Shown: positions 9,999 through 27,950 of the stretch, one piece after another | How the letters are laid out: each line of letters starts with the position of its first letter | Numbering within the stretch: position 1 is the first letter of the stretch | From: Escherichia phage vB_EcoS_PNS1 | Direction: 5' to 3' (one strand) | Sequence record: NC_073063.1 | DNA: 43,945 bases | Notes under the pieces: model-generated | Database searches by the model: none | Seen by the model: only the letters and a program-made list of their open reading frames with translations | What the model was told of the DNA's origin: nothing | Program-made: the position numbers and the translations under genes

Positions 9999-10078
9999 GG
10001 TATAATCTCCGGTATTGGGTTGAGTTTTAGTATTACACCGCTCAATCAAGAATGCAACCAATTTAAGAGGATTTAGCT

Positions 10079-12778: not shown

Positions 12779-12800
12779 TGCAACCAACCTATTGGTTGCA
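12779..12800. promoter_or_regulatory. palindromic operator-like site TGCAACCAA-N4-TTGGTTGCA
   Basis: Inverted repeat with 9-bp arms, upstream of the minus-strand gene starting at 12726. Confidence 0.4.
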
Positions 12801-13259
12801 AGTATATTTTGCAACGTTTATTGCGTAAATTTTCGGGACCAGATCGCCGCACGCCAGACGAATTGCCGCGATGTTCTTCTCGCAATCTTCAATGATGACC
12901 AGTTCCGACACGTCAGCATAGCAGACCATTTTGAACACGGCGCACGCTTTAAACTCTGGCGGCGGGGTGTCGTCCAGCATGTGGCGCATAAACAACCGCC
13001 CTGTCGGGAATACTTCCAGTTGCTCGGCGGTGGTGTCCCAACATTCTAGCTGCCGGTTTGTCAGATACGCGATCTCGAAGCCTTGCTCTTTGTACATGCG
13101 CAACAGCGGCAGCATATCCATGTTCAGGTCTTCGCGGACGTGCGCCTTGTGCCACTTCGCCCAAAAGGTGGATTTAGTTTTTATCCCCGGCACCAGGTCG
13201 GCGCGCGCATCGCTTGATCCATTAATAACGCCATCCAGGTCACAAATCAGTAATTTCAT
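12789..13259 (-). CDS. HAD-superfamily phosphatase / 5-prime nucleotidase-like
   Basis: N-terminal ICDLDGVI matches HAD motif I (DxDG); GAGGA RBS; translationally coupled to upstream gene. Confidence 0.7.
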   Translation of the reverse strand: MKLLICDLDGVINGSSDARADLVPGIKTKSTFWAKWHKAHVREDLNMDMLPLLRMYKEQGFEIAYLTNRQLECWDTTAEQLEVFPTGRLFMRHMLDDTPPPEFKACAVFKMVCYADVSELVIIEDCEKNIAAIRLACGDLVPKIYAINVAKYTCNQ

Positions 13260-13480
13260 TTCAATTCCTCAATCAAATTTGCACGAACAATACGGGCGGA
13301 AGACGTGTAACACACTAGATGCCAACGGGCGGTCATTACGAGCCAGCCGGTAAGATCCATCCCAAGCAATTGCTCGGGGCGGATAACGCGACGTACTTTA
13401 TTCTCCCTCAGGTTGATTTGGTAACGTTTAACAATTTCGTCCACGACGCGCAGACTGCGGTCAACGATTAAGATATTCAT
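13256..13480 (-). CDS. hypothetical protein
   Basis: Small ORF coupled (ATGA overlap) to the HAD gene; start taken at first ATG. Confidence 0.4.
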   Translation of the reverse strand: MNILIVDRSLRVVDEIVKRYQINLRENKVRRVIRPEQLLGMDLTGWLVMTARWHLVCYTSSARIVRANLIEELK

Positions 13481-13946
13481 GTAGCTCACTCTCGCTCATT
13501 ATTTCAATTTGTGCGCTGCCGATTGGTGGCGCTTCGTCAAAGATTATCAATTGCTGGCACTTGTTATTGCTCGGCCCGACTTCACCGGTGACCGCATGGA
13601 TGAATCGTACACGCCAGTCCAGAAGAATTATCAGGTTTGCAGTCTTCCGGGCCAACTTCGCCCACTTCGTCGACGTGTCCTGATTCAGTAGCATGACAGT
13701 CCGGCGTCCGTGCGCTGCACACTCGACCCACGGCAGCGGATCGGAATACGGCGGATTGCACCACTTCCACCCTTTCAACTCTGACCAGTCCACTTCAAGC
13801 GCGCTGTGATCTGCCGTGAAATAACGCGGTAGCAGATGGTTGGCGTCGCTTGCCGCCATGTCATAACGGAATCGGTACTTCCGGCGCAGCGGTTTAAATA
13901 AAGCTGGCGGCGTGCGCCAGCTATCTTTTTGCTCACTCTTCTGCAT
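13461..13946 (-). CDS. dam: DNA N6-adenine methyltransferase (phage Dam family)
   Basis: 161 aa with WRTPP...CNPPYSD (NPPY catalytic motif), typical of small phage Dam methylases. Confidence 0.85.
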   Translation of the reverse strand: MQKSEQKDSWRTPPALFKPLRRKYRFRYDMAASDANHLLPRYFTADHSALEVDWSELKGWKWCNPPYSDPLPWVECAAHGRRTVMLLNQDTSTKWAKLARKTANLIILLDWRVRFIHAVTGEVGPSNNKCQQLIIFDEAPPIGSAQIEIMSESELHEYLNR

Positions 13947-14397
13947 GACCTGGATCTATCGCGTATAAAGGGACTTTATTGCCGGTTTTCATAACGCGTT
14001 GGACGCGCTTCGACTCCTCGGCGCTCATTGGGCGCATATCAGTGCTGTAACCACCGTTTGATGTATGCCGCCACGCCATAAGCACCAGGTCTTTCCGGTC
14101 AATCTTAGACTGGCGGCCCTTCGGACGGACGTACTCCTCGGCCAGTTTGCAATGCTCGCGCAGACCTTCGGCAGTGATGCGGTTTAGCGCGACGGTGGTT
14201 GTGTACCCGGTGCGCTGCATAATACCCATCAACTCATACAGCAGTTCGAAGCGCTCCTCTAACTCCTTGCGCATCTTTTCCTCGCCTTCATAGCTCGCCA
14301 TGTAGGTATCCGCCAGCGCGTTCGCCCGTTCGACCTGTTCGCGGGCTTCGAGGCATTGCGCGGCCCAGTAATTTTTCTCTTCTTGTAAAATTTTCAT
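13933..14397 (-). CDS. hypothetical protein
   Basis: 154 aa, GGAGA RBS; hairpin plus T-run lies in its 5-prime leader (14412-14437). Confidence 0.5.
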   Translation of the reverse strand: MKILQEEKNYWAAQCLEAREQVERANALADTYMASYEGEEKMRKELEERFELLYELMGIMQRTGYTTTVALNRITAEGLREHCKLAEEYVRPKGRQSKIDRKDLVLMAWRHTSNGGYSTDMRPMSAEESKRVQRVMKTGNKVPLYAIDPGHAEE

Positions 14398-14478
14398 CGT
14401 GTTGTCTCCAGGTATTAAAAAAGGCGTCCAAACCGGACACCCTTAAGATAATGCAACCAATATTATTATGCAACCAAT

Positions 14479-14802
14479 TTACGCATAAAAATTTGGGTCG
14501 CGTGCAACGTCTACCAGGTAAAGGTTGCTTATGCGGTTGCCGTAGTGGCCTGGTGTGCGCTGACGGCACACAACGGCGAAGCCTGGAGGGATTGTATTGC
14601 CCGTCTCTATAATCCACGCCACGCGTGCGCCGGATAGCGTCTTGCCGTTGTACTCGATACGTGTTCCGCCGTCGGCAGTGTTAAGGTTGCCAATCTTGCT
14701 ACCGGTAGACTTCAGGCGTATAACGCCCGTTTTGCTGTCATAGGTGAATAGCTGATTGGTCATTGCCACTGAAAAGTCGATGGCGTCGAATGCAGTATTC
14801 AT
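14479..14802 (-). CDS. HNH_3/NUMOD4-like homing endonuclease homolog, degenerate active site
   Basis: Pattern F-YD..TG.L..KS.G...IEYNGK...ARVAW...TG..P.GF...GNRISNLYL matches HNH_3 layout but His positions are replaced (ARVAW, VCRQR). Confidence 0.5.
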   Translation of the reverse strand: MNTAFDAIDFSVAMTNQLFTYDSKTGVIRLKSTGSKIGNLNTADGGTRIEYNGKTLSGARVAWIIETGNTIPPGFAVVCRQRTPGHYGNRISNLYLVDVARDPNFYA

Positions 14803-15494
14803 TTTAAATTTTCCTCGTTAACCGCTATCGCGAAGCCGCGCGGAGTGAGTGAGCGGATTAATTTTGTACGAGCGGATTTACCACCGAGGCGACTATACTG
14901 TTTCGAGTACCCTTTTTCAACGAAAACAGGTTTCTTCTCTGGCATACGGAAGCCGTTGCCGGTCCATAAGCAAGTCAGCTTCGGATATGAATCGCGGGCG
15001 TTGATGTATTCCGGGAAGAGCGGGTGTACGTCATCCTCCGGCAGATACCCCCCATACTCCCACGGGTCGAACGAGTGATCCGGCTTGCGCCACTGGGTGG
15101 AAAGCACACTGCGCGGATTCTCAATCATATATGGCACTTCGAAGAAGTCACCCAGGTAAGCGGCGATCTTCGCGGTGCGCACCGCCTTAAGCTGAAAGGC
15201 GGGGTCTTTTGCACGTTTGCGAGGGAAAGCTGGCGCGCCGCTCACTGCCAGATCCGTACACGGAGGGAACGCATAGATTATATCCGGCGTACCGAAATCG
15301 CCATTCATCGCGCGGTCCACAAAGTCCATATCGATAAACTCATTGCGATATCGGATTCCACGACCATAAATCCGGTAGTCAAGGTATGATCCGTGATCGG
15401 CTTCGGAGTAGTTGAAGCAATAACACTTATGCCCCATCTCGGCAGCACGCTCAATCATCAAGCCGCTGCCGTCAAATAATGACCAGATAATCAT
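14799..15494 (-). CDS. DNA (cytosine-5)-methyltransferase-like protein
   Basis: LFDGSG (motif I-like), FPPCTDLAVSG (PC motif IV-like), ENP (motif VI-like); short at 231 aa. Confidence 0.55.
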   Translation of the reverse strand: MIIWSLFDGSGLMIERAAEMGHKCYCFNYSEADHGSYLDYRIYGRGIRYRNEFIDMDFVDRAMNGDFGTPDIIYAFPPCTDLAVSGAPAFPRKRAKDPAFQLKAVRTAKIAAYLGDFFEVPYMIENPRSVLSTQWRKPDHSFDPWEYGGYLPEDDVHPLFPEYINARDSYPKLTCLWTGNGFRMPEKKPVFVEKGYSKQYSRLGGKSARTKLIRSLTPRGFAIAVNEENLK

Positions 15495-16915
15495 TTGCGC
15501 GCCTTTTTAGCTTTCATGTATTCCATTAAATCGTCCTGAATGTCTCGCTTACTGTCGCGTCGCTCCGCGACCAGCTCGTCCAGTGTGCCGCGCGCCTGGA
15601 TAATGTAGACGAATACGGGACGAGGGTGTCCGGCTTGCATCTGGCGAACTGGCCCGATACGCTCCACGATCTGCGCAAAGTGCTCATAGTTCCAGGTGTC
15701 TGAGAAGATAGCAAGGTGGTGTCCCCCATCCTGCAAGTTAAGGCCGTGACCCGCCGATGCCGGGTGCGCAAACATGATGGGGATCTCGCCCCTGTTCCAC
15801 GCTTCCATATCCTTATTTCCTTGCTTTCCCTTACCCATCGCGACGCCGTGCGGGAATTTCTTCTTAAGACGTGCCAAGTCATGCTTGTACTGGTACGCGA
15901 CGAGCAACGGTGCGCCGTTCAACTCCTCCACGATACTTTCCAGCGCGTCCAGTTTAGCGTCGTGGATTTTCACCCATTCGTCGGTGCGCTCGCCGTCTTC
16001 GTCGACTTTATACACGGCCCCGGAAGCAAGCTGAAGGCACTTAATAGTCTTCGACGCAGCGTTCGCCGCCTCCACAGTTCCGCTTTCCAGTTCGGCAAAT
16101 AGCTCCGCTTCGAACTGGTCATAAATCTTGCGGGCTTTCTTCGGCAGGTCCACAACAACCGGCGTATAGATCGGCTTGTCACATCCGAAGTATTCAGCCG
16201 CATCAACGGTTAGCGACACGTCGGACAGGCGTTGTTGGATTTCTTTCTCGGAGTTCTTAAGCGGGGCGTGCTGCGTAATGAAGCTGCCAGGCTTAACAGG
16301 CTTGCTAATAAACCAGCGGTCCGTGAATGCCTTATAGCTACTGCCGAGGCGTTCTCCGCCGTCGACAAACCACGTCTGCCCCCACAGGTCTTTCAATCCG
16401 TTTGGCGCGGGTGTGCCGGTAAGGTTAATCCAGCGCTTGACGTGCTTATGTGCGATCGCTGCCAGCGCACGGGCGCGCTTACTTCCCTGCTTGCTTCGAT
16501 AGCCTTTCAGCTTAGTCGATTCATCGGCAACCACGACCGTAAAGGGCCATTCGTCGCCGCAATACTCGACGAGCCACTCAACCACATCATAGTTAACACA
16601 AACCACGTTAGCGACGCTCTCAAGCGCAGCGATGCGGTCCTTCTCCGACCCGGTGCCGTCTACTACCAGCAGGGCGGGGAAGCGCCATTTTTCCTGTTCC
16701 GGGGGCCATGTGCCAGATGCAACGCGCAGCGGGGCCAGCACCAGTACGCGGTCCTCCTGGTTGGACAGGATGCCGGTCTGGAACATTTTATTCAGCGCCC
16801 ACAGGGTCGCGCCAGTTTTACCCGACCCCATTGTCGCCCATATATTGCATCGCTTATGCTTGAGGATGAACGCGGTTATCAACTTCTGATATTCGCGACG
16901 TCGGAAACGTGCCAT
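15491..16915 (-). CDS. superfamily II DNA helicase
   Basis: Walker A MGSGKTG and DExx box VVADES; start at internal ATG 16915 (474 aa), coupled to upstream small gene. Confidence 0.85.
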   Translation of the reverse strand: MARFRRREYQKLITAFILKHKRCNIWATMGSGKTGATLWALNKMFQTGILSNQEDRVLVLAPLRVASGTWPPEQEKWRFPALLVVDGTGSEKDRIAALESVANVVCVNYDVVEWLVEYCGDEWPFTVVVADESTKLKGYRSKQGSKRARALAAIAHKHVKRWINLTGTPAPNGLKDLWGQTWFVDGGERLGSSYKAFTDRWFISKPVKPGSFITQHAPLKNSEKEIQQRLSDVSLTVDAAEYFGCDKPIYTPVVVDLPKKARKIYDQFEAELFAELESGTVEAANAASKTIKCLQLASGAVYKVDEDGERTDEWVKIHDAKLDALESIVEELNGAPLLVAYQYKHDLARLKKKFPHGVAMGKGKQGNKDMEAWNRGEIPIMFAHPASAGHGLNLQDGGHHLAIFSDTWNYEHFAQIVERIGPVRQMQAGHPRPVFVYIIQARGTLDELVAERRDSKRDIQDDLMEYMKAKKARK

Positions 16916-16919
16916 ATCT

Positions 16920-17138
16920 TTATTCCGCCTTTTTCCAGACTTCGGTTTCACTGTTCCAGTTCCTTTTTGTGGCGTCGTAGTTGGTGCTGTACCCGATGTG
17001 TACACCCGTCGCCCGGAAGCTCTTAAATTTTTGCCAGCACACCGTCAACGGCAGCGGGTAATTCATGCCCGCGATAAACCATACGCGATCGCCAGGTTTG
17101 CATTCGCCCAGTGTGGTGAGTCGGTAGTGTTCTTTCAT
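16920..17138 (-). CDS. hypothetical protein
   Basis: 73 aa from ATG 17138 with GGAGA RBS; preceded by hairpin ggcgggc/gcccgcc containing a GCGGGACA half-site. Confidence 0.4.
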   Translation of the reverse strand: MKEHYRLTTLGECKPGDRVWFIAGMNYPLPLTVCWQKFKSFRATGVHIGYSTNYDATKRNWNSETEVWKKAE

Positions 17139-25098: not shown

Positions 25099-27363
25099 AT
25101 GAGCTTAATTAAATTCGCTGTAACACGACCCGCTAAAAAAGGCGAAAAAGCCAGGGCGGAAAACTTCCAGATGACCACCGATGAATTTTTCGAATTTATC
25201 AATGACGCGAAAGAAATCTCCTCGGTGCATATCAACAAGACGGAAGATAAAGCCGAGTATGCGCGCCGCAAGCGTAAGGCCGATGGCATCGTGGCGTATA
25301 CCAGTGACGGCTTACGCCGCAAGACCAGTGCGGTGGACCGCTCGATCCTGTTCTTCGATATTGACCGCACCGACACCCGCACCTTACGCCGCTGCCGTAA
25401 GGCTTTCATCGACGCGGGGCTGGAGCACGTATTCCACACCACTACGGGCGACCGCCACCCGCTGAAGGGCGGAACGCGTTGCGCCCGTTTCCTGGTGCTC
25501 ACTGACAAGCCTGTCCCGGCGGAAGACCTGGGCCGTGTCCAGTATGCGCTATTACACCAACTGGGTCTGTCAGATGTGGACTTCGACGATTGCACGAAAG
25601 ACACAAACCGCCTGATGTACCTGCCGCACCAGCAATCGGTTATTAAGTGCCACTATGGCAAACGTGCCAGTGTCCGTCGTCTGCTTCGCCTGGCGGATAA
25701 GCTGGGGGTGGAGAAGGAGGAAGTCCGCCGCGAACTGACCAAGGGCGACGACGCCGTGGCAGACGGCATTCTGGACTGGTGCTTCCAGGCGGGATTCGAG
25801 GAGTTATCTTCCGGGCGGGGCTATGAAGTGCCGTGCCCTAACGAACACCTGCACAGCGGCGAAGGGTCCACCGCCATAATGGTCAAGGATGGCGAGATCC
25901 GTTTCAAGTGTATGCACACCGGCAACGAGTGCTGCTCGGAGCTGAACAGACACCAGCACCTGGCGCTCCGTCTTATCGGTATCCCGGACCACCTGAACGT
26001 CGAGCCGCACAACATGTCACGTAAGCAAATCGCCGCCATCCTGCCAGGTCTGGACGACGAGGAAGTCGAATCATTATATGATCATATTGTTGATGCGGTA
26101 GGCGACGGCGAAGAATACGGCGTGTGCACCGATTCGGATCTGGATAACGAGCCGGTCGCACTGTTCAGCAAGCACGACCCGATCATCGAAGGTCTGATTA
26201 ACTTTAAATCGACCTGGTATCTCGCCGGTGAGTCGAACATTGGTAAGTCTTTCTATGTGCTGGGGCAAATGGCTTCAGTATCTGCCGGTATTCCGTTTGG
26301 TGGGGCGAAGGTCGTCCAGTGCCACAACTTCTATTTCGATGCGGAAGGTGGTGAAGCCTCTAACCAGCGTAAAGAAGCATTGCAGATTAAATACGAGCAC
26401 GACCTGGATAAGCTGCACATTATCGATCTGCAATCACGCGGCTGGGATATCACCAGCAAATCAGGCTTGCGCGAAGTTATCAGCTTTATCAACCGCACCG
26501 CTAACGGCGAACCGGTTGGCCTGGTGGCGTTCGACTCACTCAACCAGACTGTTGCGTTGCGGTCCGCGGATGCTAAACCGTTCGACGAGAACAACGCCAG
26601 CGATATGGGTGAAGTGGTCAAAGCGCTGAAGGCCATCGCGGAAAATACAGGTGGCAGTGCGGGCGTCATCCACCACCCGGCGAAGGGTGCAAACGGCAGC
26701 AGAACCCCACGCGGGTCCGGCGCGCTGCATGGTGCTGTCGATTCTGCGTTCTTCCTGGAACAGCCGGACGACAACCAGCCAGGCCAATTGAACCTGTATC
26801 ACGAAAAGGCACGTAACGGCATCAAGCAAGCGCCGCGAGGCTTCGTCCTGCTCAAGTGCAAGGTGAAGGTGGATCTCCGCAAGTCAGAAGCGTTCGCGTC
26901 GCACCAGTCCACCAGCACCGGGCCAGACTTCGGTGACGTGGTTGCCGGTTGGGACGTCAAGCCAATTGCATCCACGCCACGCGACGAGACTCTGTATCTC
27001 GTACCGGTCGCCCTGGCACCGTTCGCCATCGAACAGGCAAAGTCCGCTGGCAAGGCCGCAGTTAAGGAAGAGAACGCCGCAGGACCGCGCAATGAAAAAG
27101 AGAAAGTGCTCTATGCGGCGCTGGAAAAACTGATGGAAGATAACCCGGACAATACCGGATTCAGCAAATCGGCAATTGTCCGCCAGGCTGGACTGGCAAA
27201 AGGTGGAACATCGACGAAGGCAATCGACGATATGGTCGAGCGCGGCGTACTCGGTTTTTATACAGACCCACACACCGGAGCCATCTATGGGTCGTCGAAT
27301 ATCGTCATCAAAACGAATATACCCATCACGCTTTCGGCGACCGATGACGACCTGAAAGATTAA
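25099..27363 (+). CDS. primase/helicase-type replication initiator (RecA-fold ATPase domain)
   Basis: 754 aa; Walker A GESNIGKS, Walker B-like LVAFDSLNQ; central Cys/His cluster; iterons begin at its stop codon. Confidence 0.85.
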   Translation: MSLIKFAVTRPAKKGEKARAENFQMTTDEFFEFINDAKEISSVHINKTEDKAEYARRKRKADGIVAYTSDGLRRKTSAVDRSILFFDIDRTDTRTLRRCRKAFIDAGLEHVFHTTTGDRHPLKGGTRCARFLVLTDKPVPAEDLGRVQYALLHQLGLSDVDFDDCTKDTNRLMYLPHQQSVIKCHYGKRASVRRLLRLADKLGVEKEEVRRELTKGDDAVADGILDWCFQAGFEELSSGRGYEVPCPNEHLHSGEGSTAIMVKDGEIRFKCMHTGNECCSELNRHQHLALRLIGIPDHLNVEPHNMSRKQIAAILPGLDDEEVESLYDHIVDAVGDGEEYGVCTDSDLDNEPVALFSKHDPIIEGLINFKSTWYLAGESNIGKSFYVLGQMASVSAGIPFGGAKVVQCHNFYFDAEGGEASNQRKEALQIKYEHDLDKLHIIDLQSRGWDITSKSGLREVISFINRTANGEPVGLVAFDSLNQTVALRSADAKPFDENNASDMGEVVKALKAIAENTGGSAGVIHHPAKGANGSRTPRGSGALHGAVDSAFFLEQPDDNQPGQLNLYHEKARNGIKQAPRGFVLLKCKVKVDLRKSEAFASHQSTSTGPDFGDVVAGWDVKPIASTPRDETLYLVPVALAPFAIEQAKSAGKAAVKEENAAGPRNEKEKVLYAALEKLMEDNPDNTGFSKSAIVRQAGLAKGGTSTKAIDDMVERGVLGFYTDPHTGAIYGSSNIVIKTNIPITLSATDDDLKD

Positions 27364-27500
27364 TTTGTGCGCGCATTGGTTGCCGATATGGGAATTCCCA
27401 TATCGCTAAAAGATTAATTTGTGCGCGCATTGGTTGCCGATATGGGAATTCCCATATCGCTAAAAGATTAAATTCTGCGCGCATTGGTTGCCATTTAGGG
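27361..27500. repeat. tandem 54-bp iterons each with a 20-bp perfect palindrome; candidate replication origin
   Basis: Units at 27361-27414 and 27415-27468 are identical, third partial; palindrome GATATGGGAATTCCCATATC at 27385-27404 and 27439-27458; each unit carries ATTGGTTGCC. Confidence 0.8.
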
Positions 27501-27544
27501 TGTTTTTATCCGGTCGTATTGGTTGCCGTGTAGTGTAAATATAA

Positions 27545-27740: not shown

Positions 27741-27894
27741 AATCCGGTATTGCAAAATACACGGCAGCATGTTGCGGATCGCGGTCGTCGCTGAACTAGG
27801 CAACCAATGCGAGATGCAGAACGGGGTGTGAAAAATGCAGTTTGCAGATTCAGCAGATAGCGATCAACTTTTTCATACGCGTGATTAATATTGG

Positions 27895-27923
27895 TTGCAT
27901 CCGCCCTGACACACTGCTATATT
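27895..27923 (+). promoter_or_regulatory. candidate promoter for the small-gene block
   Basis: TTGCAT, 17-bp spacer, TATATT; overlaps two ATTGGTTGCA motifs. Confidence 0.4.
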
Positions 27924-27950
27924 GGTTGCACACCAACAGGAGGGCGGAAC

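Follow-up and report, generated by a model that had tools for sequence, protein, structure and literature searches.

Organization of the locus

The genes described here lie within a window of 43,945 nucleotides (by window we mean the whole stretch of DNA that was analysed), and from its sequence the source genome is placed among the Dhillonvirus (HK578-like) coliphages. More than 150 Dhillonvirus genomes show 90–93% nucleotide identity to the region and have the same gene order. All the features are on the minus strand and, in the direction in which they are read, a SNF2-family helicase gene (15491–17005; PF00176, E 8.6e-11) is located directly upstream of the gene for a short Dcm-like C5-cytosine DNA methyltransferase of 231 aa (14799–15494). 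The latter is followed by a NUMOD4/HNH_3-like open reading frame (ORF) of 107 aa (14479–14802), an intergenic gap of 81 bp (14398–14478), an ORF of 154 aa that encodes a predicted protein without assigned function (13933–14397), the gene for a Dam-family N6-adenine DNA methyltransferase of 161 aa (13461–13946) and, directly downstream of it, a 74-aa homologue of Ksap1 (13256–13480). The Dam gene, the HNH-like ORF and the Dcm-like gene lie where the initial annotation placed them, and its main statement is borne out: one co-oriented DNA-metabolism block encodes two DNA methyltransferases of different classes, an N6-adenine enzyme of the PF05869 family and a protein with a C5-cytosine fold. The HNH-like ORF, on the other hand, is not the sole item between them, as had been described, given that the 154-aa ORF and the 81-bp gap are also found there.

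Most genes of this block are joined by overlapping start and stop codons: the Dcm-like gene overlaps at its start with the stop of the helicase gene and at its stop, over 4 bp, with the start of the HNH-like ORF. The proposal that both methylases belong to the same early operon is overstated: the genes are co-oriented and have these overlaps, but the block is split by the gap, which separates the HNH-like ORF from the 154-aa ORF. Inspection of the sequence and motif counts revealed in the gap a hairpin that resembles a terminator and precedes a run of T, the sequence ATTGGTTGCA in two copies, and the ribosome binding site of the next ORF. At the equivalent position some relatives, among them Pubbukkers (gp35), have an additional 80-aa gene.

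Values of dN/dS, computed pairwise between the genes of the window and those of other Dhillonvirus genomes, are low for the Dam gene (0.05–0.11), the HNH-like ORF (0.03–0.07) and the Dcm-like gene (0.02–0.04), and therefore both methyltransferase genes and the HNH-like ORF are genuine genes and not chance ORFs. The 154-aa ORF, which was overlooked in the initial annotation, has dN/dS values of 0.09–0.25 and matches PHROG 10530 (E 1.4e-96), while a Pfam search with it gave no match; the label “DNA ligase” that it carries in databases is probably a propagated misannotation. With regard to the helicase, in another group of viral contigs of ~44 kb a 65–67% identical helicase adjoins the Dcm-like gene, with the order of the two genes reversed.

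The Dam-type methylase

The 161-aa protein matches PF05869 with an E-value of 7.6e-35 (120.5 bits, with a cut-off of 28.1) over positions 5–152 of the 169 that form the profile, and PHROG 111 with an E-value of 4.7e-54. Its NPPY motif occupies residues 64–67 (13746–13757), and the original description of a Dam-family N6-adenine methylase with this motif can thus be maintained. The score of 84 bits against TIGR01712 is under the equivalog cut-off of 97.05, so that the sequence assigns the protein to the PF05869 family at a level at which TIGR01712 does not license an equivalog function. Its probable target, taken by analogy from the family, is GATC.

Motifs and family of the short Dcm-like protein

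The FxGxG, PC and ENP motifs that had been noted in the 231-aa protein are present as FDGSG (motif I, residues 7–11, 15462–15476), PPC (motif IV, residues 77–79, 15258–15266), which includes the catalytic Cys79, and ENP (motif VI, residues 125–127, 15114–15122). FDGSG is invariant among 34 aligned sequences of the subfamily, whereas across the wider Dcm-like family, evaluated in 115 representatives, motif I is looser and follows the pattern [FY]-D-x-[ST]-G. In these 115 representatives the residue of the window protein is kept at Cys79 in 107, at Glu125 in 112, at Asn126 in 108, at Pro127 in 113 and at Lys172 in 106; the context of the catalytic Cys, for which the initial annotation had proposed an alignment, is therefore intact. 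The position of motif II is occupied by Asn28, and it is Asp in 102 of the 115. The protein does not contain the QxRxR of motif VIII, for which a conserved W135-R136 pair (Arg in 101/115) may substitute. A crude count with regular expressions gave the impression that many members of the family do not have FxGxG and PC; once they were aligned, this proved to be an artefact of PEC/PVC variants and of the relaxed motif I.

The protein matches PHROG 757 (“DNA methyltransferase”) in its full length (E 1.5e-82, residues 1–229), and its family comprises 2886 homologues, with 1893 representatives at 50% identity and 1510 phage records. In the BASEL annotation a family of phage proteins of roughly 230 aa is named “Dcm-like C5 cytosine methyltransferase.” Since this is a large phage family of proteins of roughly 230 aa, a short length is normal in it, and the view that the enzyme is unusually short has to be abandoned: its 231 aa compare with a median of 234 aa among the top 149 family representatives. 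The short Dcm-like family is already known, with published functional data on homologues, and the 231-aa protein can be named as a Dcm-like C5 methyltransferase despite having been missed by curated profiles.

Predicted fold of the short Dcm-like protein

The AF2 model of the protein has a pLDDT of 88.9 and a pTM of 0.88, and the top 50 matches listed by Foldseek against the PDB are MTase domains of DNMT3A/3B/3C, the best of them with an E-value of 3.2e-7 and a probability of 1.0 (TM 0.45–0.54 to DNMT3A/3B). Searches with curated sequence profiles gave no Pfam match at E ≤ 1 (PF00145 included) and none in NCBIfam, and a precomputed PF00145 match is found in just 3 of the 120 listed homologues. 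The C5-type fold proposed in the initial annotation is thus supported by the predicted structure and the fold search but not by Pfam or NCBIfam and, because of the lack of matches to these profiles and the rarity of PF00145 among the homologues, the model places the protein among the C5 methyltransferases at the level of fold or superfamily rather than in the curated sequence family PF00145.

The profile built with the 34 sequences gave, against the PDB, a weak match to M.HaeIII over motifs I–IV (E 0.83) and nothing else; hhalign found no significant alignment between the profile of the Dcm-like family and either E. coli Dcm or gp16 of phage eiAU-183, a canonical phage C5 methylase, and BLASTP gave no match between the window protein and this gp16. 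A relation with kinases, which came from a PDB search with the single protein sequence (E 0.45), was discarded as spurious.

The order and identity of motifs I, IV and VI are the same as in the canonical C5 methyltransferases (PF00145: E. coli Dcm, M.HaeIII, M.HhaI) and in DNMT3A/3B. In contrast with the canonical enzymes, the Dcm-like protein is ~100–240 residues shorter, does not have a recognizable large target-recognition domain, and has its C-terminal motifs compressed to “IRSLTPRGFAxAV.” According to the AF2 model, ~50 residues located in loops (151–173 and 180–207) would be left for target recognition, and in this domain similarity to E. coli Dcm is not detectable.

The HNH-like ORF

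The 107-aa ORF matches PHROG 99 (“HNH endonuclease”) with an E-value of 3e-16, a match that supports common descent only, and its score against Pfam HNH_3 (PF13392) is 13 bits (cut-off 24.8, E 0.079). Its catalytic positions were mapped by means of a MAFFT alignment with I-HmuI, the NUMOD4 + HNH_3 enzyme of phage SPO1, and six relatives, in which similarity is low, together with the PHROG match. The N-terminal NUMOD4-like motif S-x-x-G-x-[IV]-R aligns, as do G-x-R-[LV]-A and N-x-x-x-N-L-x-[LW]-V, the end of the beta-beta-alpha motif, but the HNH-like protein stops just past this motif and does not have the C-terminal DNA-binding domains of I-HmuI. In this alignment His56, the metal-binding Asp74 and the general base His75 of I-HmuI correspond to Ala59, Arg80 and Gln81, while Asn89 and Asn93 are kept, and the earlier statement that the catalytic residues are missing agrees with this result. 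Arg80 and Gln81 are present in the Dhillonvirus copies examined; in the only distant homologue of the ORF, gp17 of Edwardsiella phage eiAU-183, these positions are Ile and Asp. An HMM of I-HmuI relatives did not score the ORF significantly, searches of the PDB with its sequence and profile gave chance matches only, and its AF2 model (pLDDT 46.5, obtained from 5 near-identical sequences) is too poor for a fold search.

The ORF is found in 160 phage records with 81–97% identity, in essentially every Dhillonvirus genome. For a mobile homing endonuclease a sporadic distribution would be expected, and in this respect the ORF, which is fixed in the genus, differs from the endonucleases of the I-HmuI type. 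The term “degenerate” that was first applied to it is adequate in the sense that the sequence corresponds to an inactive nuclease, but decay is at odds with strong purifying selection and with fixation across Dhillonvirus, which point to an exapted gene and not to a decaying one.

Experimentally studied homologues and the probable target

The Dcm-like protein is 54% identical, over its full length (E 1e-86), to the product of bas06_0055, a 711-bp gene of phage KarlJaspers. In its length of 711 bp and in the numbering of residues C82, E128, K175 and K176, bas06_0055 matches the Dcm of phage K42; the K42 genome was reported to be 95.4% identical to that of KarlJaspers Bas06 (Wang et al., bioRxiv 10.1101/2023.08.16.553469). 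K42 Dcm increases the 5mC present on the msDNA of retron Ec86, as measured by LC-MS, and triggers the retron; the effect on 5mC is lost in the C82A/E128A/K175A/K176A mutant, and plasmid-borne expression of the enzyme by itself is sufficient for activity (bioRxiv 10.1101/2023.08.16.553469). When the CCTGG of the msDNA was changed to AATGG, ACTGG or CATGG, the defence of Ec86 against K42 was abolished, and the msDNA of dcm+ MG1655 has little 5mC when the phage enzyme is not present (bioRxiv 10.1101/2023.08.16.553469). The CCWGG specificity of K42 Dcm was assumed from its name and is backed by these msDNA changes alone rather than by a mapped methylome (bioRxiv 10.1101/2023.08.16.553469).

The window enzyme and the K42/KarlJaspers Dcm, the trigger of Retron-Eco1, belong to one family and are similar in size (231 and 236 aa, respectively). 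Cys82, Glu128 and Lys175 of the K42 enzyme are equivalent to Cys79, Glu125 and Lys172 of the protein described here, while Lys176 is replaced by Leu173; the KarlJaspers protein also has Asn at the position of motif II. In both phages, which are small siphoviruses with a Dam-like enzyme of their own, the gene stands alone within the DNA-metabolism module, but KarlJaspers belongs to the genus Hanrivervirus (Drexlerviridae) rather than to Dhillonvirus, and no HNH-like gene is annotated immediately around its Dcm gene.

Another homologue, with 52% identity, is ORF52 of Pantoea phage vB_PagS_AAS23, for which BLASTP found no conserved domain and whose relation to C5 methylases was established via HHpred to PDB 3ME5 (PMC8004638). 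Restriction analysis with a panel that included EcoRII and MboI indicated that AAS23 DNA is Dam- and Dcm-methylated, a result in which the participation of host methylases was not excluded (PMC8004638). AAS23 likewise pairs its C5 methylase with a gene of the Dam superfamily (ORF34), although it belongs to a different genus, infects a different host, and has these two genes far apart.

The number of potential sites in the genome of the window was compared with that expected from a third-order Markov model. There are 145 CCWGG sites, which are neither depleted nor enriched, and 173 GATC sites where 172.5 are expected (abs(z) <0.6 for both). These counts fit with sites that the phage has no need to avoid but, given that neither depletion nor enrichment is observed, they say little about specificity. 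Nor can CCWGG specificity be deduced from similarity in the target-recognition domain, because curated profiles and profile comparisons find nothing significant. By analogy with the homologues, however, the target of the Dcm-like enzyme is likely to be of the Dcm type, CCWGG. The initial annotation had considered an atypical target or substrate, an idea that is disfavored by homologues of 52–54% identity tied experimentally to Dcm-type 5mC, even if their exact recognition sequence was never directly mapped.

Proposed roles and alternative explanations

The results obtained here concern the structure of the genes, their motifs and fold, their homology and the selection that acts on them, while the formation of 5mC and the resistance to EcoRII and MboI come from the literature on homologues; by analogy with these, we infer the targets, the activity and the biological function of the copies of this phage. 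The explanation that we favor, and hold with considerable though not complete confidence, is that the locus contains two orphan phage DNA methyltransferases, one of the Dam type and one Dcm-like (CCWGG), together with an inactive HNH relic. Both stand-alone enzymes would modify the DNA of the phage during infection and, incidentally, that of the host. The 161-aa PF05869 enzyme would act as a Dam-type N6-adenine methylase, and the 231-aa enzyme, with a Rossmann-type catalytic core, FDGSG, Cys79 as the nucleophile, Glu125 and a very small region for target recognition, would most likely place 5-methylcytosine at CCWGG sites of the Dcm type. The benefit would be narrow, a shield against nucleases that are blocked by these marks (for example, EcoRII-type and MboI/DpnII-type), and this protection would hold with or without the Dam and Dcm of the host; the cost would be an activity that retron Ec86/Eco1 may detect. 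As for the HNH-like ORF, it would descend from a homing endonuclease of the I-HmuI type that lost the catalytic Asp and His and the C-terminal DNA-binding domains, and purifying selection would keep it for some non-nucleolytic role.

One alternative is that the 231-aa protein is an active C5 methyltransferase with a specificity or substrate other than duplex CCWGG, such as a shorter or different motif, or hairpin or single-stranded DNA (retron msDNA, replication intermediates). We regard this as unlikely, even if several observations suggest it. About 200 residues follow motif VI in M.HhaI, whereas this tiny target-recognition region is contained in the ~100 residues that follow it here, and similarity to the corresponding domain of E. 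coli Dcm is undetectable. Furthermore, the recognition sequence was never mapped genome-wide, and the low 5mC content of msDNA from dcm+ MG1655 implies that the K42 enzyme uses a substrate left mostly untouched by host Dcm. Strong expression of the phage enzyme would, however, account equally well for this last result, and both the loss of Ec86 defence against K42 upon changes in the CCTGG of the msDNA and the report that AAS23 DNA is Dcm-methylated, with EcoRII in the restriction panel, argue for the Dcm-type target. A different possibility, to which we assign a low probability, is that the HNH-derived 107-aa protein is not an unrelated relic but a partner of the methyltransferase, for example a regulator of methylation or a subunit for DNA binding, targeting or specificity. 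Its start and the stop of the Dcm-like gene overlap, purifying selection on it is strong, it is fixed in the genus, and gp17 of eiAU-183 is directly beside a C5 methyltransferase of another sequence family (without detectable similarity to the window enzyme), which is followed by a PF05869 Dam. Synteny inherited between related phages can account for the arrangement in eiAU-183, and K42 Dcm is active alone; moreover, no HNH-like homologue is found near the Dcm-like gene in any of 70 viral loci from outside Dhillonvirus, which led us to reject an obligate partnership as a general rule.

It is very improbable, in turn, that one or both proteins are inactive on DNA, as pseudo-enzymes or as enzymes that act on RNA or nucleotides. 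The absence of curated-profile matches for the 231-aa protein, its Asn28 where most family members have Asp, and the short length of Dam, together with its score under the TIGR01712 cut-off, would be consistent with such a proposal. Nevertheless, the catalytic motifs are all intact, the dN/dS of the Dcm-like gene is among the values given above as low, the KarlJaspers counterpart of the active K42 enzyme also has Asn in motif II, and the PF05869 match spans nearly the whole profile, with NPPY in place.

Restriction resistance and possible recognition by host defences

The initial annotation took the presence of two methylases as a sign of broad anti-restriction. This does not agree with the BASEL study, in which the restriction resistance of Queuovirinae is set against that of Dhillonvirus and Drexlerviridae, described as less resistant (PMC8594841); in the Drexlerviridae, methyltransferase genes have no simple link to restriction resistance (PMC8594841).

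The value of these results is mainly one of annotation and they carry little weight as a discovery, since the pair of methyltransferase genes with the relic is found, mostly annotated already, in over 150 Dhillonvirus genomes that have been sequenced. Two aspects concern the defences of the host. From the homology of the Dcm-like protein, retron Ec86/Eco1 is predicted to be a possible sensor of this phage. In addition, the 74-aa gene adjoining Dam encodes a homologue of Ksap1, the SECphi18 protein recognised by KpAvs2: its product is 55% identical (E 4e-28) to that of a 74-aa SECphi18 gene located between Dam and a phosphatase gene, the interval in which Ksap1 has been placed (PMC11564622).

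Gene order and methylase classes

The window is essentially a whole Dhillonvirus genome, since the 3-kb region around the feature shows 90-93% nucleotide identity to more than 150 genomes (42-46 kb) of these HK578-like coliphages, among them Pubbukkers, Henu5_1, Sponge, SO-1 and SECphi18, and the gene order is the same in all. All the genes of the methylase region lie on the minus strand. In transcription order, an SNF2-family helicase (15491-17005) comes first, its stop overlapped by 4 bp by the start of the C5-like gene (231 aa, 14799-15494), which in turn shares 4 bp with the HNH-like ORF (107 aa, 14479-14802); after a gap of 81 bp (14398-14478) come a 154-aa ORF (13933-14397), the Dam gene (161 aa, 13461-13946, with a 14-bp overlap with the preceding ORF), a 74-aa ORF (13256-13480) and, last in the block, a HAD-type phosphatase (12789-13259). 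The coordinates and motifs of the initial annotation are exact (translation confirms FDGSG, PPC and ENP for the C5-like product, and NPPY for Dam), and the ORFs it listed are present; it overlooked the 154-aa ORF and the 81-bp gap between the methylase genes. A terminator-like hairpin with a T-run lies in this gap, as does, in two copies, a motif repeated elsewhere in the genome, and therefore the two methylase genes do not form part of an unbroken series of overlapping genes; the proposed early operon is putative. The observation itself is confirmed and its interpretation partly supported; the gene arrangement was already known and annotated, and functional data exist for the short methylase family.

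The two methylases do belong to different classes. Dam clearly belongs to Pfam PF05869 (E 7.6e-35, covering positions 5-152 of the 169 in the profile) and matches PHROG 111 (E 4.7e-54); it falls below the NCBIfam TIGR01712 equivalog cut-off (84 vs 97 bits), and a sequence search found no relative with a solved structure. GATC is generally the target of phage Dam enzymes and, by analogy with its family, would be the target here.

The short C5 enzyme

The 231-aa protein has no match to curated profiles (Pfam, NCBIfam) and is assigned to PHROG 757, “DNA methyltransferase” (E 1.5e-82). Its family comprises 2886 homologues in a collection of 5.8 billion proteins (1893 representatives at 50% identity) and is found in 1510 phage GenBank records that range over Dhillonvirus, Drexlerviridae, rV5-like and large (~165-kb) myoviruses, as well as phages infecting Klebsiella, Salmonella, Pantoea and Vibrio; the BASEL collection labels these genes “Dcm-like C5 cytosine methyltransferase”. 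The median length of the best 149 representatives is 234 aa, so the enzyme, once described as unusually short, is typical of its family.

In an alignment of 115 representatives (window residue numbering), the catalytic cysteine context is intact: Cys79 is kept in 107, Glu125 in 112, Asn126 in 108 and Pro127 in 113, and conservation extends to Arg136 (101/115), Lys172 (106/115) and Arg214 (109/115). Motif I reads [FY]-D-x-[ST]-G in most members, FDGSG being confined to the subfamily of the window. From 34 homologues, AlphaFold2 gave a confident model (pLDDT 88.9, pTM 0.88), whose best PDB matches in Foldseek are the methyltransferase domains of DNMT3A/3B (E 3e-7, probability 1.0, TM about 0.5), C5 methyltransferases with small target-recognition domains. 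M.HaeIII aligns weakly with the family profile over motifs I-IV (E 0.83), and E. coli Dcm shows no detectable similarity in its target-recognition region.

Specificity and protection from restriction

Published evidence on function comes from phage K42, which shares 95.4% genome identity with KarlJaspers (Bas06). Wang et al. (bioRxiv 10.1101/2023.08.16.553469) isolated K42 escape mutants on retron Ec86, and all four carried mutations that disrupt, or likely disrupt, expression of a “dcm” gene of 711 bp. Expression of K42 Dcm raised 5mC in msDNA, as measured by LC-MS, and was toxic together with the retron, a C82A/E128A/K175A/K176A mutant was inactive, mutation of the CCTGG motif in msDNA abolished defence, and such a Dcm is reported for 34 of 35 Ec86-sensitive phages (bioRxiv 10.1101/2023.08.16.553469). 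For K42 Dcm itself, CCWGG as the target was taken from the name, with only indirect support. The KarlJaspers counterpart, bas06_0055 (711 bp), shares 54% identity with the window protein along the full length (E 1e-86), with Cys82, Glu128 and Lys175 corresponding to Cys79, Glu125 and Lys172, whereas its Lys176 is replaced by Leu173. A second relative, ORF52 of Pantoea phage AAS23, is 52% identical; BLASTP found no conserved domain in it and HHpred gave 99.7% to a C5 methylase structure (PMC8004638). AAS23 also encodes a Dam-superfamily gene, and its DNA was reported to be Dam- and Dcm-methylated with a restriction panel including EcoRII and MboI, host methylases not being excluded as the source (PMC8004638). 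Taken together, the best evidence (K42 Dcm and AAS23) points to ordinary Dcm-type methylation rather than to the atypical target once suggested, with some uncertainty remaining.

The proposal of broad anti-restriction is not borne out: the BASEL study describes Dhillonviruses as less resistant to restriction than Queuovirinae, and in Drexlerviridae it saw no simple relation of methyltransferase genes to resistance (PMC8594841). Methylation of two specific motifs shields solely from enzymes blocked by those marks. The window contains 145 CCWGG and 173 GATC sites, both at the expectation of a third-order Markov model, which is compatible with, and not diagnostic of, sites that need no avoidance. 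Separately, the BamHI site GGATCC is found a single time where about 9.5 copies are expected (z about -2.9), and there is mild depletion of CCSGG and GGWCC (z about -2.2).

The HNH-derived protein

The HNH-like ORF matches PHROG 99 (E 3e-16) and falls below significance against Pfam HNH_3 (E 0.079). It was aligned with the homing endonuclease I-HmuI (a sequence 100% identical to that of phage SPO1) and six I-HmuI-like endonucleases. The alignment covers the NUMOD4-like segment and the end of the beta-beta-alpha motif, Asn89 and Asn93 corresponding to Asn83 and Asn87 of I-HmuI, whereas His56, Asp74 and His75 are replaced by Ala59, Arg80 and Gln81; the roles of these I-HmuI residues are taken from its structure. 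The alignment thus supports the proposed loss of the catalytic histidines, at low similarity, with a non-significant HMM score and an unusable AlphaFold2 model. The protein ends directly past the beta-beta-alpha motif and has no C-terminal DNA-binding domains.

To call this ORF degenerate is misleading: its dN/dS is 0.03-0.07 and it is fixed in Dhillonvirus, in contrast to the sporadic occurrence expected of a mobile homing endonuclease. It is present in 160 Dhillonvirus records (81-97% identity), and its protein-database homologues all have 107 aa save one frameshifted entry of 111 aa. This points to exaptation of the HNH-derived protein. A general partnership with the methylase is rejected, because an HNH-like homologue lies nearby in none of 70 non-Dhillonvirus viral loci with a Dcm-like gene. 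The sole homologue outside the genus, the distant gp17 of Edwardsiella phage eiAU-183 (41% identity), is flanked by a helicase and by a C5 methylase (PF00145, E 1.6e-13), with a PF05869 Dam next in line; that C5 methylase has no detectable sequence similarity to the window enzyme. Such an arrangement could be inherited synteny, while a functional link between the HNH-like protein and the methylase seems improbable.

Neighbouring genes and repeats

Within the genus the 81-bp gap is the site of an indel polymorphism: in Pubbukkers and several other Dhillonviruses it is occupied by an additional 80-aa gene (gp35; L001 2899-3141). PHROG 10530 and several RefSeq records call the adjacent 154-aa ORF “DNA ligase”, probably a propagated misannotation, since it has no Pfam match and is far shorter than a ligase; it is more variable among Dhillonviruses than its neighbours (75-98% identity, dN/dS up to 0.25). 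An SNF2 helicase 65-67% identical to that of the window directly adjoins the Dcm-like gene in another phage group (nine loci, viral contigs up to ~45 kb) in reversed order, methylase then helicase; the pairing has outlasted a rearrangement.

The 74-aa ORF that follows Dam encodes a homologue of Ksap1, a small Dhillonvirus protein whose direct binding by KpAvs2 triggers defence (PMC11564622). This homologue shares 55% identity with the SECphi18 copy, retains Leu47 and Thr50, positions mutated in escapers, and varies far more among Dhillonviruses (57-87% identity) than most neighbours (generally >90%), which fits immune-driven diversification.

The motif ATTGGTTGC[AC] has 17 occurrences (3.2 expected) when one mismatch is allowed; it clusters at 27352-27513, with scattered copies at 10053, 12779-12800, 14452-14478, 24561, 27799-27930, 28650, 30727 and 38345. 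Directly after a 754-aa ORF, three tandem 54-bp repeats each contain it, the first two also carrying the palindrome CGATATGGGAATTCCCATATCG, and from its sequence the array looks like putative iteron or operator sites (an origin or regulator-binding array).
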